Assembly: GCA_018366115.1 (NCBI GenBank)
Contig: JAGZIS010000001.1
Location: 254,118-318,117 of the forward strand
Source: Haemophilus parainfluenzae
GTDB taxonomy: Bacteria; Pseudomonadota; Gammaproteobacteria; Enterobacterales; Pasteurellaceae
Reading direction: 5' to 3'
Length of the DNA stretch: 64,000 nt
Of the stretch, positions 20,082-48,845 are shown piece after piece (position 1 is the stretch's first letter; each line of letters begins with the position of its first letter). The notes beneath the pieces are model-generated. The model was not told the origin of the DNA and searched no databases. It was given only the letters and a program-made list of their open reading frames with translations. The position numbers and the translations under genes are program-made.

Positions 20082-20157
20082 TGGCTCCTCCTGCGGGACT
20101 CGAACCTGCGACATATGGATTAACAGTCCACCGTTCTACCGACTGAACTAAGGAGGA
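20082..20157 (-). tRNA. tRNA-Asn (GTT).
   Basis: The reverse complement TCCTCCTTAGTTCAGTCGGTAGAACGGTGGACTGTTAATCC...GGTTCGAGTCCCGCAGGAGGAGCCA is near-identical to E. coli tRNA-Asn. Confidence 0.9.
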
Positions 20158-20159
20158 AA

Positions 20160-20235
20160 TGGTGCCTCGAGGCGGAATCGAACCACCGACACGGGGATTT
20201 TCAATCCCCTGCTCTACCGACTGAGCTATCGAGGC
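20160..20235 (-). tRNA. tRNA-Phe (GAA).
   Basis: The reverse complement GCCTCGATAGCTCAGTCGGTAGAGCAGGGGATTGAAAATCCCCGTGTCGGTGGTTCGATTCCGCCTCGAGGCACCA matches E. coli tRNA-Phe. Confidence 0.9.
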
Positions 20236-22936: not shown

Positions 22937-23128
22937 AACTTTCCTAAAGTGCGGTCAAAATAAGCAAAAATTTTGTGATGATTCTATCACTAAAGCACAC
23001 CTCTTGATCAATTTGATTTTTTCAGTATAATTCGCAGTCTATTTGGTGCCGGATTGTCGGCGATTATTAACTCACGCGGTGTAAGTGGAGAGCATTTATA
23101 GCGGCGTGGCTTCAATTTGAGGTTTTCT

Positions 23129-23473: not shown

Positions 23474-25729
23474 TTAAAATGAATATTTTACTGTTGCATA
23501 ATACGCACGACCAGGTTCGTTATAAGTATGAGCATTGTAATTTGTACTGCTTGATGAACGATAAATGCGTTTATCAAATAAGTTACTTACGCCGACACGA
23601 ATGCTGATTGTGTCTTTCCAATTATAACCTGCACTTAATCCCCAAACTGCATAGCCACCAATATCTTCTGAGCCAGCAAGTTGATTAACGTATGTATTGT
23701 TACCATTTTCCATACGGTTTTCCGGATTTTTACGGGATTTTTGTTTACCGTATTGCGTATAAGTTAACATTGCATCCAAACTATCGGTAATTTTATAACT
23801 TAAGCTTGAATTCAAGGTATATTTCGGCACGATAGAAAGCGGGTTACCTGTATCTTTATTTTTGGTTTTATGCATATAAGTGAAGTTATTCACCCAATTT
23901 AATTTATCTTGGATTAGTGGTAATGTCAGATTGCCTTCAAAACCTTCAATCACTGCGCGGTTTGCATTACCCCATTTATACACATAGTTACCTAAGTTAG
24001 TTAAACCGATAAATTCACCATCAGACACGATTTTGTTACGATAGTCATTACGGAAGTAAGCCACAGAAGCAAGAACTCCATTTTTATCATATTCAATTCC
24101 GATTTCTTTATTCCAGCTGGTTTCCGGTTTAATGTCGCTATTACCTTGGAAATAACAAGTTTTATTATTTGGTACATTCGTTGGACAACCTTGACCTAAG
24201 GTAAATAGCAAGTAATTTGGGTTAGTTTGATAAAGGTTCGGTGCTTTATAAGCTCTTGCAATCCCACCTTTAATTCTCCAATCATCGTTGAGGCTTTGTA
24301 AGAAGTTTAATCCACCGCTTACATTAGAACCAGAATAACTGTTGTAATCATAACGTAAAGATGGCGTTAGGATAGTAGATTGGGTTGCTGAAATATTATC
24401 TTCAATAAATACTGCCCATTCCGTTTGGCTACTATGACCTCCTCGTACATTTGAGATGCCGGTTGGTAGGCGTTCTTTCAAATCATAAAGCACCTTCCCT
24501 GTTTTTTTATCTCGTCGTCCACCAAGTAACTGTGTCATAGAAGCGTCATCATCTAAACTGCTATGTGCACCTTCAAAACCAACTGTCAGCATATGATCTA
24601 CGCCCAAGGTAAATGGGATATAGAATTCAGAACTAAGGCGTGTATTTTTAAGAATGGAATCACTAAAGGCTGATGTGCTCGAATAGCTGCCCTCTGGACC
24701 ACCTGCTAAGTATTCTGGTAAACGGCTGTTTTTCGTTTTATCAAAAGTAATATAGGTTTTATTGTCAAAATGATCGAATTTACCCTCGTAGGTTAAAGCA
24801 TAGTTTTGACGATACAAACGAGCAGTTTCAGCTTTGCTTCCTGCCAAGGTTTTAGTTTCAGGATAATTTTTATTATTGTAAAGCCCTGCTGAGCTATTTT
24901 GTGTATCACCGTTATAAATATTACCTTGACGGCTAAAACCAGAATCTAAGGTTAATTTATTTTTCTCATTGATATTCCACACTAAACGGCCATTAATATC
25001 TTTATTACGTACACCTTCACGACCGGCAATAGCAGGATCGCCATTAATACCGACTTCATCCGCTTGCGTTTTGTTCCAGTTACCATATAAACGGAATTGC
25101 AATATGTCTTTAATTAACGCTCCGCTTAGATTAAAACCGACACGGTTCGTTGCGCCTTCATCGCTATCTTCTGGTTGGTTGGTGTAATAACTTAAGCTCC
25201 CGTGTAAATCATTGGTAACAGGTTTAGTAATAATATTAACCACCCCACCCATTGCACCTGAGCCATAACGTGCAGCTGAAGGACCACGTAATACTTCAAT
25301 TTTTTCAATCGCTTCAACTGGTACCCAGTTGCTGTCGCCACGAGAGTTACGTTCACCACGTACACCATAACGTTCTGCATTACGAGAGGTGACTGGTTTA
25401 CCATCCACTAAAATCAATGTATTTTCTGGTCCCATACCACGAATATCAATTTGACGTTTATTTCCGCGTTGTCCTGTAGATGAGTTACCCGTCAAATTCA
25501 CACCTGGCATGGTACGTAATACTTCAGAAATATCATTTGTCGCTGGGCGTTTTTCTAAATCTTTTGCTGTCACAAGAGAAGAGCCAAGTGATTGTTTTAC
25601 CTGATCTTCCGCAGTAACTTTAATTTCCTCAAGTTTCTCTTCTGCATAAGAATAGTTTGAAAAAAGCGCGATGGTTAACGCACTTAATGCGAAGAATGAT
25701 GTTGTTTTTAAATGATTGGATTTATACAT
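23474..25729 (-). CDS. TonB-dependent outer-membrane receptor (FepA/CirA-like, iron/siderophore or heme type).
   Basis: Start chosen at MYKSNHLKTTSFFALSALTIALFSNYSYA (signal peptide) with an AGGAG RBS. A TonB box/plug (IDIRGMGPENTLILVDGKPV) and a C-terminal ...YYATVKYSF (terminal Phe) are present. The ORF track extends to 25807. Confidence 0.85.
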   Translation of the reverse strand: MYKSNHLKTTSFFALSALTIALFSNYSYAEEKLEEIKVTAEDQVKQSLGSSLVTAKDLEKRPATNDISEVLRTMPGVNLTGNSSTGQRGNKRQIDIRGMGPENTLILVDGKPVTSRNAERYGVRGERNSRGDSNWVPVEAIEKIEVLRGPSAARYGSGAMGGVVNIITKPVTNDLHGSLSYYTNQPEDSDEGATNRVGFNLSGALIKDILQFRLYGNWNKTQADEVGINGDPAIAGREGVRNKDINGRLVWNINEKNKLTLDSGFSRQGNIYNGDTQNSSAGLYNNKNYPETKTLAGSKAETARLYRQNYALTYEGKFDHFDNKTYITFDKTKNSRLPEYLAGGPEGSYSSTSAFSDSILKNTRLSSEFYIPFTLGVDHMLTVGFEGAHSSLDDDASMTQLLGGRRDKKTGKVLYDLKERLPTGISNVRGGHSSQTEWAVFIEDNISATQSTILTPSLRYDYNSYSGSNVSGGLNFLQSLNDDWRIKGGIARAYKAPNLYQTNPNYLLFTLGQGCPTNVPNNKTCYFQGNSDIKPETSWNKEIGIEYDKNGVLASVAYFRNDYRNKIVSDGEFIGLTNLGNYVYKWGNANRAVIEGFEGNLTLPLIQDKLNWVNNFTYMHKTKNKDTGNPLSIVPKYTLNSSLSYKITDSLDAMLTYTQYGKQKSRKNPENRMENGNNTYVNQLAGSEDIGGYAVWGLSAGYNWKDTISIRVGVSNLFDKRIYRSSSSTNYNAHTYNEPGRAYYATVKYSF

Positions 25730-25799
25730 TGAAATGCTCTCCTGGCATATGTGGAATAAATAATGTCCGAGAATTCTAGTACAATATAATTTTGGTGTA

Positions 25800-25820: not shown

Positions 25821-25925
25821 TATTGAATTTAAATAAAATACCTAATTTTTTAACCGCACTTTCTTGCAATCCCAATAAATTCTAGTATTATTCACGGCTC
25901 GCCAATTTGGCGGATTTATTTCTCA

Positions 25926-25964
25926 TGTCGGGTTCCCTACCCCCGATTAACCAACTAAAAAGGT
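25926..25964 (+). ncRNA. preQ1-I riboswitch aptamer (translation-controlling).
   Basis: UCGGG-UUCCCUACC-CCCGA-UUAACCAACUAAAAAGG mirrors the T. tengcongensis aptamer CUGGG-UCGCAGUAAC-CCCAG-UUAACAAAACAAGG: a 5-bp G/C stem, a C-rich loop, and an A-rich tail ending in the AAGG Shine-Dalgarno 7 nt before the yhhQ ATG. Confidence 0.7.
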
Positions 25965-25970
25965 CTTAAA

Positions 25971-26678
25971 ATGAAAATTAATACTCCGATCTTCAATGAT
26001 CAACAAAAACGTTTTGCTTTAATTTTATTAAGCTTATTTCATATCTTCATCATCACAGCCAGTAACTATTTTGTTCAAATTCCCTTTGAAATCAATTTAA
26101 AATTGACCGCACTTGGCTTTGCTGATGATTTTTCCTTCCACAGCACATGGGGCACACTCACTTTCCCATTCATTTTCTTAGCCACTGATTTAACGGTACG
26201 TGTATTTGGGGCAAAAGAAGCTCGTTGGATCATCTTTATCGTGATGCTCCCTGCGCTTATCGTGAGTTACATTGTTTCGGTTGTTTTTTCTGATGGACAA
26301 TATCAAGGCTTAGGTGCATTAAGTGAATTCAATATGTTTGTTTTCCGTATTGCGTTCGCCAGCTTCTGTGCTTATGTTTTCGGACAATTATTAGATGTGC
26401 TAGTATTCAACCGCTTACGTCAATTAAAAACTTGGTGGATTGCTCCGAGCAGCTCAATGACATTTGGTTCCCTTGCGGATACTTTTATGTTCTTTTGTGT
26501 CGCGTTTTATAAAAGTAGTGATCCATTTATGGCAGAACATTGGTTTAGCCTTGGATTCGTCGATTACTTATTTAAATTATTTGTCGGTATTATCTTGTTT
26601 GTTCCCGCTTATGGTGTGGTACTCAGCATGATTTTGCGTAAACTCCAATCTCTTGCAAACTCTCGTCAGTTTGCTTAA
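25971..26678 (+). CDS. yhhQ: Queuosine-precursor (preQ0/preQ1) transporter, YhhQ/Vut_1 (DUF165) family.
   Basis: 235 aa with about 6 TM helices and a YhhQ-like pattern. Its position directly downstream of a preQ1 riboswitch supports the call. Confidence 0.8.
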   Translation: MKINTPIFNDQQKRFALILLSLFHIFIITASNYFVQIPFEINLKLTALGFADDFSFHSTWGTLTFPFIFLATDLTVRVFGAKEARWIIFIVMLPALIVSYIVSVVFSDGQYQGLGALSEFNMFVFRIAFASFCAYVFGQLLDVLVFNRLRQLKTWWIAPSSSMTFGSLADTFMFFCVAFYKSSDPFMAEHWFSLGFVDYLFKLFVGIILFVPAYGVVLSMILRKLQSLANSRQFA

Positions 26679-26692
26679 CTTAAGGAAATAAA

Positions 26693-28009
26693 ATGACTGA
26701 AACCCTTTCTCTTAGAGCCAAAATAGAACAAAGCCCAATGGGGGCTTATCAATGGATGATTGTGGTCATGGCTGCCATCATGAATTTACTTGACGGCTTC
26801 GATGTATTAGCCCTTGCCTTCACGGCAACAGCCATTCGTGGCGAATTTGGTCTCACGGGGATTGAGTTAGGTTATTTATTAAGTGCCGGCTTATTTGGCA
26901 TGACCGCTGGCTCACTTTTCCTCGCACCACTTGCAGATAAAATTGGTCGTCGCCCATTGTTATTAATGGCAGTATCACTCTCCGCTATCGGAATGTTAGG
27001 ATCGGCGTTTATTTCACAATATCAATGGCTTGGTTTCTGGCGCGTTATCACCGGCCTTGGTGTTGGCGGGATTTTAGTAGGCACAAACGTGATCACCAGC
27101 GAATATTCCTCTCGCAAATGGCGTAGCTTCGCGATCAGTGTCTATGCGGCAGGTTTTGGTATCGGTGCAGTATTAGGCGGTATGTTCGCTGTGATGTTGC
27201 AAGGTGAATATGGCTGGCGTTCAGTGTTCCTAGCAGGGGCTATCTTGACCGGTTTACTTTTAGTGGTGTTATTTATTTGGTTACCGGAATCCATTGATTT
27301 CCTCACCTCCAAACAACCTAAAAATGCAGAGGTGCGGTTAAATTTAATCGCAAAAAAAATTGGTTTAGCCGGTGATTGGAAACTTCCAGAAAAAATGGAA
27401 AAAGTTAAGACTAAATTACCTATTAGCCAATTATTCAGCGAAAAATACTTACACTCCACTCTGTTAATTTGGACGGCTTTCTTTGCGATCATGTTCAGCT
27501 TCTATTTTATTAGCTCATGGACACCAGCCTTATTAAAAGAAGCCGGCATGACGACAGAGCAAAGTGTAAGCGTTGGAATGATGATCTCATTAGGGGGCAC
27601 TTGTGGTGCCTTAATCTATGGCTTACTGGCAAGCCGTTGGACAGCACGAGGCGTGTTAATTTTATTCACTGTCTTATCTTCTGCAGCAATCATTACCTTT
27701 ATCTTATCCTCGTCCGTTTTATGGATTGCAATGGTATTCGGTATTTTAGTTGGTGCACTCATGAATGGCTGCATCAGCGGTCTTTATACCTTAAATCCCC
27801 TTACTTATGATGCCGATATTCGTAGCACTGGTGTGGGTTGGTCGATTGGTATCGGTCGTATTGGTGCAATTCTTGCCCCTACGATTGCCGGTCAATTATT
27901 AGATATGGGCTGGGACAAACAGAGTTTATATGTTGGCGTTGGCTTCGTTATGCTGATCTCAACAGTCGCACTCTTTTTCTTAAAAAGCCGCTCAGAAATT
28001 AAAGCATAA
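26693..28009 (+). CDS. MFS transporter, aromatic acid:H+ symporter (AAHS)-like.
   Basis: 438 aa with 12 TM helices. It has an LDGFD motif in TM1 and the MFS motif LADKIGRRPLLL, an AAGGAAA RBS, and starts 14 nt after yhhQ, so it is probably co-transcribed. Confidence 0.85.
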   Translation: MTETLSLRAKIEQSPMGAYQWMIVVMAAIMNLLDGFDVLALAFTATAIRGEFGLTGIELGYLLSAGLFGMTAGSLFLAPLADKIGRRPLLLMAVSLSAIGMLGSAFISQYQWLGFWRVITGLGVGGILVGTNVITSEYSSRKWRSFAISVYAAGFGIGAVLGGMFAVMLQGEYGWRSVFLAGAILTGLLLVVLFIWLPESIDFLTSKQPKNAEVRLNLIAKKIGLAGDWKLPEKMEKVKTKLPISQLFSEKYLHSTLLIWTAFFAIMFSFYFISSWTPALLKEAGMTTEQSVSVGMMISLGGTCGALIYGLLASRWTARGVLILFTVLSSAAIITFILSSSVLWIAMVFGILVGALMNGCISGLYTLNPLTYDADIRSTGVGWSIGIGRIGAILAPTIAGQLLDMGWDKQSLYVGVGFVMLISTVALFFLKSRSEIKA

Positions 28010-28030
28010 TCTTAAAAAAAATATAGCAAA

Positions 28031-28056
28031 AGGCGTGATAAACACGCCTTTTTTAT
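28031..28056 (+). terminator. Terminator after the MFS gene.
   Basis: AGGCGTG-ataaa-CACGCCT followed by TTTTTTATT. Confidence 0.8.
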
Positions 28057-28231
28057 TGCCTTAATAAAGTTCTCATCCCTAGTCTTCAGATCAGAAAGAT
28101 TCTCAAGTTATTTTATGTAACATTTTCTTCTAAAAATCCTTTGTTATCCATCTTGAATTTCAACGCATTATGGTGTTAAATCAGCACACATTATAAGGTT
28201 ATAAAAATATAAAAATAAGTTGTAGGAATTT

Positions 28232-39325: not shown

Positions 39326-39689
39326 CCTCAAAATCGTTGTTTTCAACTTCAGCTAAAGGTTTACGTTCTTCTTTAGCCGCTTTCATTGGGGACGCTTCGG
39401 TTACGGCGTGCTTAGTATGGATAACAAGACTGCGTAATACAGCATCGTTATAACGGAAAGTCGTTTCTAGCTCGTCGATGACTTGTTGAGGCGCTTCTAC
39501 ATTCATAAGCACATAGTGTGCTTTGTGTAATTTGTTAATTGGGTACGCTAATTGACGACGACCCCAATCTTCTAGGCGATGAACTTGACCACCAGCTTCT
39601 TTAACAGAACCTGTGTAACGTTCGATCATACCTGGTACTTGCTCGCTTTGGTCCGGATGAACCATAAACACGATTTCGTAGTGACGCAT
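39312..39689 (-). CDS. rpsF: 30S ribosomal protein S6.
   Basis: 125 aa. [25 protein letters not shown], with an acidic C-terminal tail. Confidence 0.95.
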
Positions 39690-39878
39690 TACTGCTCCTT
39701 ACGGGTTAATCAGCCTTTGACGTAGATTAGCCACCAATCTGCAAAGGCAAGGAACGAAAAAATGAACGTGGCTAAGAGCGCTGATTATACAGATTTTTTT
39801 CCAGACTTCAAATAATTTGTACGCTTTTCAAACAAAAAAAGCCGATATCAACATATCGGCTTTTCTTTTATTTCTAAA

Positions 39879-47019: not shown

Positions 47020-47096
47020 CGGCGAGTAGCGCAGCTTGGTAGCGCAACTGGTTTGGGACCAGTGGGTCGTAGGTTCAAATCCTATCTCGCCGACCA
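47020..47096 (+). tRNA. tRNA-Pro (TGG).
   Basis: CGGCGAGTAGCGCAGCTTGGTAGCGCAACTGGTTTGGGACCAGTGGGTCGTAGGTTCAAATCCTATCTCGCCGACCA is near-identical to E. coli proM. Confidence 0.9.
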
Positions 47097-47148
47097 CTTC
47101 TTTTATATTTCCCTCGAAATTCCATACAAAAGATGTAACCCTTAAAAT

Positions 47149-47225
<77 letters not shown>

Positions 47226-48755: not shown

Positions 48756-48845
48756 TGGCGGTGAGAGGGGGATTCGAACCCCCGATGCACTTTCGCACAT
48801 ACACGCTTTCCAGGCGTGCTCCTTCAACCACTCGGACATCTCACC
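48756..48845 (-). tRNA. tRNA-Ser (GGA).
   Basis: The reverse complement GGTGAGATGTCCGAGTGGTTGAAGGAGCACGCCTGGAAAGCGTG...GGTTCGAATCCCCCCTCTCACCGCCA has a long variable arm. Confidence 0.9.

Follow-up and report, generated by a model that had tools for sequence, protein, structure and literature searches.

Since the gene for a queuosine-precursor transporter, yhhQ, is preceded in Haemophilus parainfluenzae by a small hairpin with an A-rich tail that runs into the Shine-Dalgarno (SD) sequence, we wondered whether this leader is a preQ1 riboswitch, to which type it would belong, and how far along the transcript its control would reach. The analysis covered a stretch of 64,000 nucleotides of the H. 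parainfluenzae genome (the window, to which all coordinates refer). An initial annotation, made from the sequence alone, had proposed a preQ1-I riboswitch modeled on that of T. tengcongensis (Tte) and acting on a yhhQ-MFS operon. The riboswitch itself is supported, since the element is collinear with the yhhQ leader of E. coli, and we hold with high confidence that nucleotides 25928-25963 constitute a class I type III preQ1 riboswitch in the yhhQ 5' leader. This assignment is carried by the architecture of the sequence, its conservation and covariation, its linkage to yhhQ and its identity with the validated E. coli element. Type III is said to have been described originally by McCown et al. 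2014.

Class I preQ1 riboswitches comprise three types (PMC10622847). Type III is nearly confined to gamma-proteobacteria, where it regulates yhhQ (PMC10622847; PMC11625349), and we took the consensus criteria for this type from the same two papers. It has 4-5 conserved adenines before the P2 helix, a linker of 'variable length', and an AAGG Shine-Dalgarno sequence that doubles as the 3' half of P2 (PMC10622847). Its loop is short and rich in pyrimidines, opens with UU and continues into the anti-SD CCCU (PMC10622847; PMC11625349). Binding of one preQ1 with nanomolar affinity and repression have been demonstrated in type III representatives from E. coli, Shigella and Enterobacter only (PMC10622847). 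The feature is already known: the riboswitch type has been described and its structure solved, and the element is an ordinary representative of it, found before the gene where this type is normally found. A summary of all features and of the roles that would fall to single nucleotides can be found in Table 1.

Table 1. Features of the yhhQ leader and of the genes behind it. Roles of single nucleotides are those expected from the E. coli riboswitch; E. coli numbers refer to the 36-mer.
Feature	Sequence	Position	Strand	Counterpart or expected role	Basis
Predicted sigma-70 promoter	-35 TTGCAA (25864-69), 16-nt spacer, -10 TATTAT (25886-91)	25864-25891	+		Consensus scan
5' stem-loop	UCGCCA-AUU-UGGCGG then AUUUAUUUCU	25899-25913	+		Fold and terminator-like scan call
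P1 5' strand	UCGGG (DNA TCGGG)	25928-25932	+	E. coli positions 2-6	Direct reading
G25932	G	25932	+	E. coli G6; pocket floor (G6-C16 = 25932/25942)	Match to E. coli leader
Pyrimidine-rich loop, 9 nt	UUCCCUACC (DNA TTCCCTACC)	25933-25941	+		Direct reading
U25933, U25934	UU	25933-25934	+	E. coli U7, U8; predicted ligand and A33 contacts	Homology
C25935	C	25935	+	E. coli C9; predicted ceiling base	Role from PMC10622847
C25936, C25937, U25938	CCU	25936-25938	+	E. coli C10, C11, U12; anti-SD strand of P2	
A25939	A	25939	+	Variable loop position (13)	Alignment
C25940	C	25940	+	Stands in place of consensus A14	
C25941	C	25941	+	E. coli C15; specificity cytidine	Invariant in 34/34 distinct sequences
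P1 3' strand	CCCGA	25942-25946	+	E. coli C16-A20	
L3 linker, 10 nt, variable	UUAACCAACU	25947-25956	+		Direct reading
A-tract and Shine-Dalgarno	AAAAAGG	25957-25963	+		Direct reading
A25957-A25959	AAA	25957-25959	+	Predicted A-minor contacts with P1	Role from E. coli structure
A25960	A	25960	+	E. coli A33; first SD base; predicted reader of the preQ1 edge	Homology
A25961, G25962, G25963	AGG	25961-25963	+	E. coli A34, G35, G36; P2 3' strand, pairs with U25938, C25937, C25936	
yhhQ, queuosine-precursor (preQ0/preQ1) transporter		25971-26678	+		NCBIfam NF008406, TIGR00697, Pfam Vut_1
MFS transporter, aromatic-acid:H+ symporter type		26693-28009	+		Pfam MFS_1, Sugar_tr; TIGR00895
Hairpin, likely yhhQ-MFS terminator	GGCGUG-AUAAA-CACGCC then UUUUUUAUU	28030-28058	+		Direct reading

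Read directly from the sequence, the layout that had been proposed for this leader (UCGGG, loop, CCCGA, A-rich tail) turned out to be correct to the base, and the AAGG Shine-Dalgarno lies 7 nt before the yhhQ ATG at 25971, as had also been noted, with TCTTAAA as the spacer between its GG and the start codon. The interval 25926-25964 consists of the aptamer, two nucleotides (UG) before P1 and one (U) after the GG, and the tail behind P1 reads TTAACCAACTAAAAAGG (25947-25963). Its features are those of type III: the last three pairs of P1 are G-C, as this type requires, and the A-tract AAAAA (25957-61) and a variable-length linker are both present. Eight of the nine loop nucleotides in UUCCCUACC are pyrimidines, the first six being the same as the E. 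coli UUCCCU, and nucleotides 25936-38 are complementary to 25961-63, which is the sense in which we speak of P2 pairing in this RNA. One consensus feature is absent, namely the A before the specificity cytidine (the 'AC motif'), which is replaced by C at 25940; this A is a consensus and not a universal feature.

The location is likewise that of type III, in the 5' leader of yhhQ (COG1738) of a gamma-proteobacterial host. The downstream open reading frame of 235 aa had been named as YhhQ, and this identity was confirmed: it scores 343.2 bits with NCBIfam NF008406 (cutoff 252), the family of the '7-cyano-7-deazaguanine/7-aminomethyl-7-deazaguanine transporter', and 199.5 bits with TIGR00697. The protein is 97-99% identical to many H. 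parainfluenzae records.

The closest relative of the element is the yhhQ riboswitch of E. coli. The leader of E. coli K-12 reads UUGGG-UUCCCUCAC-CCCAA-UGGUUAAUC-AAAAAGG, and we take it to be the wild-type 'Eco' 36-mer of PMC10622847, because the GGUUAAUC linker is present and the residue numbering fits. This 36-mer binds preQ1 with a KD of 58 nM, its co-crystal structure with preQ1 is available (Schroeder et al., J Biol Chem 2023, PMC10622847), and in cells it gave 6.1-fold repression with an EC50 of 291 nM (PMC10622847). Common to both leaders are a 5-bp P1 that ends in three G-C pairs, a 9-nt loop UUCCCUN-C whose specificity cytidine adjoins the 3' strand of P1, a variable linker, and an AAAAAGG in which AGG can pair with the loop CCU. 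In both, the Shine-Dalgarno lies within the aptamer, the start codon follows 6-7 nt further on, and the gene downstream is yhhQ in a gamma-proteobacterial host. The function of the E. coli riboswitch is lost with U7C, C15U, C16U or A33C (PMC10622847), and U7, C15, the G6-C16 pair, A33 and the CCU/AGG pseudoknot bases are all the same in H. parainfluenzae; C15 is 97% conserved (PMC10622847). By homology, preQ1 binding, pseudoknot formation and the size of the repression in the H. parainfluenzae RNA would be expected to resemble those of its E. coli counterpart.

The two leaders differ in a limited number of places. The second P1 pair shows a compensatory change (C-G in H. parainfluenzae, U-A in E. 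coli), and loop position 13, a variable site, is A in the former and C in the latter. Position 14 is C in H. parainfluenzae and A in E. coli, a difference that we take up below. The linker has 10 nt (UUAACCAACU) as against 8 nt (GGUUAAUC), the H. parainfluenzae leader has an extra 5' hairpin, and the gene that follows yhhQ encodes an MFS protein in H. parainfluenzae and is dcrB in E. coli.

We then considered how far this likeness extends among relatives. A scan with one genome per species gave 80 Pasteurellaceae loci, with YhhQ identities of 76-99%, and the element was found directly before the yhhQ start, exactly once per locus, in 80/80, as well as in E. coli K-12, and it also precedes yhhQ in six further genera. 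Across 34 distinct sequences from Pasteurellaceae and E. coli, no change occurs in the core GGG-UUCCCU-N-N-C-CCC or in AAAAAGGU. The loop varies at positions 13 and 14 and nowhere else, and the A-tract/SD AAAAAGG is identical in 34/34. In all, some 29 nucleotides do not change from Pasteurellaceae to E. coli. In these same sequences there is free variation in the linker, in the spacer before the start codon and in the leader further upstream, and the linker ranges from 5 to 24 nt among the sampled genera, with variation in its sequence as well. A blastn search with leader plus yhhQ against E. coli genomes returned no match, the yhhQ coding DNA being too diverged.

These sequences also bear on the reality of the P1 helix. 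Its GGG/CCC pairs are invariant, and the second pair is C-G in 21 and U-A in 13 of the 34 distinct sequences with zero breaks. At the outermost pair, 27 sequences have U-A and 7 a mismatch. P2 is paired throughout (100%) and, like the pocket bases, shows no variation in the samples, so that P2 and the pocket contribute no covariation evidence. A larger sample came from a metagenome scan with the pattern GGGTTCCCTNNCCCC...AAAAGG, in which the two outer P1 pairs were left free and the P2 pairs were fixed. A YhhQ open reading frame lies immediately downstream of 100 of the 115 matches (phmmer), and several of the others were too short to tell. Of the 84 distinct YhhQ-linked sequences, 83 can form the inner free pair, as U-A, A-U or C-G (shuffled mean 54.8), and 64 the outer one, with all four Watson-Crick types (shuffled mean 30.0); the observed pairing was reached in 0/2000 shuffles. 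P1 is therefore backed by real covariation.

Within the species, 39 H. parainfluenzae sequences have polymorphic sites at 1/19 positions of the aptamer and 0/7 of the A-tract/SD, the corresponding values being 27-43% in the neighboring segments of the leader and 53% at third codon positions. Since the aptamer is far less polymorphic than its surroundings, selection on the element is ongoing in H. parainfluenzae. We also built a covariance model (R1) from 22 Pasteurellaceae sequences from outside H. parainfluenzae together with E. coli. With this model, 25928-25964 is matched at 43.6 bits with an E value of 3.4e-8 (64 kb, both strands). It is the sole match with an E value below 0.1, and the next best in the 64 kb scores 13.8 bits.

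A mechanism can be proposed by transferring the E. coli structure to this RNA. The P1 hairpin UCGGG/CCCGA would carry the 9-nt pyrimidine loop, and a bound preQ1 would be contacted by C25941 (through a Watson-Crick face), U25933 and A25960. The ligand would stack on the G-C floor of P1, beneath a ceiling of C9, U12 and A34 (E. coli numbering), and its binding would lock A33 against U8 and preQ1 (same numbering). The A-tract would then occupy the minor groove of P1, and the Shine-Dalgarno bases A25961, G25962 and G25963 would pair with U25938, C25937 and C25936, which in E. coli numbering are the P2 pairs U12-A34, C11-G35 and C10-G36, so as to close an H-type pseudoknot. All four Shine-Dalgarno bases would thereby be buried, translation initiation would be blocked and YhhQ output would fall, so that precursor import would be repressed by feedback. 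In the unbound state, the tail would be free and yhhQ would be translated. The control is expected to be translational because the gap between aptamer and ATG is only 7 nt and leaves no room for a terminator. The initial annotation had likewise predicted translational OFF control, and this prediction is borne out to the extent that AAGG is placed to supply the pseudoknot with its 3' strand. As in other gamma-proteobacteria, the uptake of queuosine precursors in H. parainfluenzae would thus be under feedback control by the smallest known natural riboswitch; as a finding this adds little.

The reading that competes best with a standard type III sensor concerns C25940. This C is present in all 42 sequences of the H. 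parainfluenzae group (loop UUCCCUACC), and the loop of every other sampled Pasteurellaceae genus and of E. coli is UUCCCUNAC, with A at position 14. It could be that the fold is the same and the ligand response has shifted, the A-to-C change weakening preQ1 binding or altering selectivity or stoichiometry. The target could then be preQ0 or another 7-deazapurine, and the element would be a functional variant. Such a view gains from what is known of the equivalent adenine in E. coli (A14, or A13 in crystal numbering), which contacts the base U11 of the pocket ceiling, has been proposed as a gatekeeper and was not among the tested mutants (PMC10622847). It gains also from the poor tolerance of the E. 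coli aptamer for pocket mutations and from the divergence of the subtypes at just this position, with U in type I, which binds two ligands, and A in types II and III.

On the other hand, all bases that would contact the ligand directly are unchanged, and the variant, which has gone to fixation in its clade, is subject to purifying selection there; this argues for a working element. The beta site of type I would need a loop longer by 3 nt and a CUA directly before the Shine-Dalgarno, neither of which is found here. In addition, CC is present at this site in 13 of the 84 distinct yhhQ-linked metagenome sequences (UUCCCUCGCC in 9, UUCCCUCACC in 2 and UUCCCUACC in 2). Since the UUCCCUCGCC sequences (9/84) are a separate yhhQ-linked group with a 10-nt loop, a C at this site is tolerated in nature. 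We consider a shifted ligand response unlikely, and C25940 does not disqualify the element from type III, although the affinity or selectivity of this variant may differ from that of E. coli. What the site offers is a natural A-to-C variant at the proposed gatekeeper that can be compared with E. coli.

A second question is whether the element is a type III riboswitch or belongs to one of the other two types, given that the initial annotation had likened it to the type II riboswitch of T. tengcongensis. As far as the general H-type layout is concerned, this comparison holds. Common to the two are a 5-bp P1, a cytidine as specificity base and an A-rich L3 tail; Tte also forms an H-type pseudoknot, binds one ligand per RNA and shuts off translation through its Shine-Dalgarno, and our element would do likewise. 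The subtype, however, is not type II, as judged by the 9-nt pyrimidine loop and the AAGG Shine-Dalgarno inside P2. The Tte loop is longer and contains the purines G8, A10 and G11, which build P2 and the ceiling and are not found in H. parainfluenzae; in Tte only two Shine-Dalgarno bases are sequestered and the Shine-Dalgarno makes no contact with the ligand. Moreover, type II controls queT-type genes, whereas the H. parainfluenzae element precedes yhhQ.

Type I, known from Carnobacterium antarcticum, H. influenzae ('Hin') and N. gonorrhoeae and thus occurring in the same bacterial family (PMC8752633), shares with our element the UU after the 5' strand of P1 and the overall fold. It is set apart by three more loop nucleotides, by a U in front of the specificity C and by a CUA that adjoins the Shine-Dalgarno, and it binds two stacked preQ1 molecules cooperatively (PMC8752633). 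At 25928-25963 the distinguishing features of both types are absent. With regard to type II, the loop has 9 nt with no G and a single A; with regard to type I, the specificity C is preceded by C, and the CUA at 25954-56 is kept from the GG by A residues.

The Rfam model for preQ1-I, RF00522, might be thought to settle the matter. It gave nothing at the gathering threshold in the whole 64-kb window (cmscan, Rfam 15) and nothing at E<=10 in a 201-nt stretch. Applied to 51 nt, it produced a full-length alignment in the expected register at 9.7 bits, against a gathering score of 39. The consensus of RF00522, with its 12-nt loop and CUAAGGA tail, follows the pattern of types I and II. Under the same search conditions, the validated E. 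coli yhhQ leader was not matched either, nor were three other Pasteurellaceae elements. A negative result with RF00522 is therefore uninformative for type III, because the crystallised E. coli element is missed as well. The initial annotation had proposed that the lack of a covariance-model hit should count as a refutation; formally this is what was observed with RF00522, but the check is unsound, as the E. coli positive control fails it too. Since RF00522 is blind to type III preQ1-I riboswitches, the absence of an Rfam hit is no ground for dismissing candidates before yhhQ.

Taken on its merits, an assignment to a Tte/Bsu-like type II or to a type I riboswitch can point to the common H-type layout, to the presence of a type I preQ1-I riboswitch in the H. 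influenzae genome, and to RF00522, which was built on types I and II and gives a full-length alignment in this register. This alignment, however, reaches just 9.7 bits. The sole purine of the 9-nt loop is an A, whereas type II needs purines and type I three extra nucleotides; the aptamer includes four Shine-Dalgarno bases, which is the type III arrangement; and the gene context is yhhQ, which is neither queT nor one of the que biosynthesis genes. We regard types I and II as very improbable for this element and retain type III.

Thermodynamic and statistical comparisons with random sequence were less telling. The minimum free energy (MFE) of the P1 hairpin was not significantly better than that of shuffled sequences (z-score -0.9), and the same was true for the whole leader (z -1.3). 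These MFE results are uninformative because the 19-nt hairpin draws its stability from the ligand-bound pseudoknot. By chance, a match to the 13-base core that allows up to 2 mismatches would turn up 0.38 times per window; the match here is exact. Thermodynamics alone fails to separate the element from chance; the other evidence puts it far from chance. Least credible of all is the idea that the element is no ligand sensor, being either a conserved leader hairpin plus Shine-Dalgarno that serves stability or the binding of a protein or sRNA, or else a chance likeness: it would accommodate a hairpin that is thermodynamically unremarkable and curated RNA families that all stay below threshold, but it has to face near-identity to an RNA that has been crystallised with its ligand and switches in cells, the approximately 29 nt that are invariant to E. 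coli despite yhhQ DNA beyond the reach of blastn, and a metagenome motif that is exclusively tied to yhhQ starts.

With the element read as a type III preQ1-I riboswitch, we asked how far its control would extend along the transcript. The MFS gene begins 14 nt after the yhhQ stop codon and has a Shine-Dalgarno of its own (AAGGA at 26682-86); its product scores 345.8 bits with TIGR00895, which is below the cutoff of 418.55. A terminator scan of the + strand found no strong terminator-like site between yhhQ and the MFS gene. From the aptamer to 28030, it found no + strand terminator comparable in strength to the hairpin that begins there, the only call being a weak site at 27643-27657 inside the MFS gene. 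The two genes are probably co-transcribed. The scan called the hairpin at 28030-28058 on the minus strand (28052-28028), and it looks bidirectional. As to the proposed control of a yhhQ-MFS operon, the part that concerns yhhQ stands, this gene being regulated directly. Control of the MFS gene, with its own AAGGA, is a matter of deduction, and an effect of preQ1 on it would be indirect, through polarity or through decay of the untranslated mRNA.

The arrangement of riboswitch, yhhQ and MFS gene is conserved as a module in at least 10 Pasteurellaceae lineages, in which the flanking genes differ. We found it in H. parainfluenzae, H. seminalis, Pasteurella langaaensis, Pasteurella bettyae and Avibacterium volantium, and in Necropsobacter, Volucribacter, Caviibacterium, Conservatibacter and Exercitatus. 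Stand-alone orthologues of the MFS gene, in Actinobacillus pleuropneumoniae, Gallibacterium anatis and Lonepinella, have no riboswitch in front. Among approximately 100 metagenome loci, the pairing of yhhQ with the MFS gene was absent outside Pasteurellaceae-like sequences.

Because the three-part module is fixed despite different flanking genes, co-repression of the MFS gene by preQ1 is possible. We tentatively raise the idea, which we think more doubtful than not but worth stating, that the protein encoded at 26693-28009 is a second importer of a compound of the queuosine pathway, co-repressed by preQ1, with the CC aptamer tuning affinity or selectivity. Candidate substrates in this case would be preQ0, preQ1, queuine or queuosine. 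Import of preQ0/preQ1 was recently demonstrated for an MFS protein from Bartonella (PMC11130926); the MFS preQ1 transporter of Bartonella henselae is UniProt A0A0H3LX18. In the conserved module, the MFS protein is a candidate for a further queuosine-precursor transporter that can be put to the test.

Upstream of the aptamer, the predicted sigma-70 promoter would place the transcription start near 25897-25899, at the foot of the 25899-25913 stem-loop. The leaders of Haemophilus, Rodentibacter and Pasteurella have TTGCAA and TATNAT hexamers in corresponding positions, and the E. coli yhhQ leader has a similar arrangement (TTGCAT-17-TATCAT). The stem-loop has a predicted stability of -7.3 kcal/mol (z -2.35), and its four stem positions that are polymorphic among the 39 H. 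parainfluenzae sequences all keep pairing, with changes of C-G to U-G or U-A and of U-G to U-A. It lies outside the aptamer and is probably a stabiliser of the 5' end, or, less probably, a leaky terminator. A role for this hairpin as ligand-controlled terminator or expression platform was rejected, as it sits upstream of the aptamer. The divergent gene on the other side of the leader (23474-25732, minus strand) encodes a TonB-dependent receptor of the FepA family.

We found that the type III preQ1-I subtype lies outside the reach of the curated Rfam model RF00522. At positions 25923-25964 of the window this model scored 9.7 bits, whereas its gathering score is 39; the crystallised type III riboswitch of the E. 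coli K-12 yhhQ locus (L081, 14171-14221) gave no RF00522 match at all.

Type III riboswitches usually carry an A where the H. parainfluenzae element has a C (25940, forward strand), a substitution specific to the H. parainfluenzae clade that contrasts with A14 of E. coli, the proposed gatekeeper. Among 115 motif matches in the metagenome scan the C variant occurred five times, exclusively in H. parainfluenzae-like sequences. We also observed a yhhQ-linked variant with a 10-nt loop, UUCCCUCGCC, in 9 of the 84 distinct metagenome sequences (for example at loci L095, L126, L129, L140, L157, and L196), and found no description of it in the accounts of type III consulted.

The leader hairpin upstream of the aptamer was scored as terminator-like in the terminator scan. 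Every within-species polymorphism preserves its pairing, and Pasteurella and Aggregatibacter leaders have hairpins of different sequence at the equivalent place; H. influenzae and Rodentibacter leaders have none there. This hairpin is more probably a 5'-end stabiliser than a terminator.

Features around the yhhQ riboswitch and other Rfam matches in the window
Feature	Position	Strand	Remarks
L31 (rpmE) ribosomal-protein leader	23073-23123	+	~2.8 kb upstream of riboswitch
FepA-family TonB-dependent siderophore receptor gene	23474-25732	-	between L31 leader and riboswitch-yhhQ-MFS
Small conserved hairpin, then AUUUAUUUCU	25899-25913, tail to 25923	+	between predicted promoter and aptamer
MFS transporter	26693-28009	+	counterparts at L086-L088, L208-L210, L045, L068, L073, L079 (Pasteurellaceae loci)
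RpsF leader and tRNA matches	39687-39772 (-), 20085-20235 (-), 47020-47222 (+), 48759-48845 (-)		Rfam

In at least 10 Pasteurellaceae lineages, with varying flanking genes, riboswitch and yhhQ are followed 10-100 nt on by the MFS transporter, which is possibly a further queuosine-precursor transporter. A. pleuropneumoniae, G. anatis, and Lonepinella carry the same MFS gene as a solitary gene that the riboswitch does not accompany. Since rpmE directly adjoins the riboswitch-yhhQ-MFS module in Volucribacter (L088), whereas the receptor gene separates them on the opposite strand here, the arrangement suggests an insertion or rearrangement. The remaining Rfam matches in the window were routine: the RpsF leader scored 42.5 bits, and the others were five tRNA genes.
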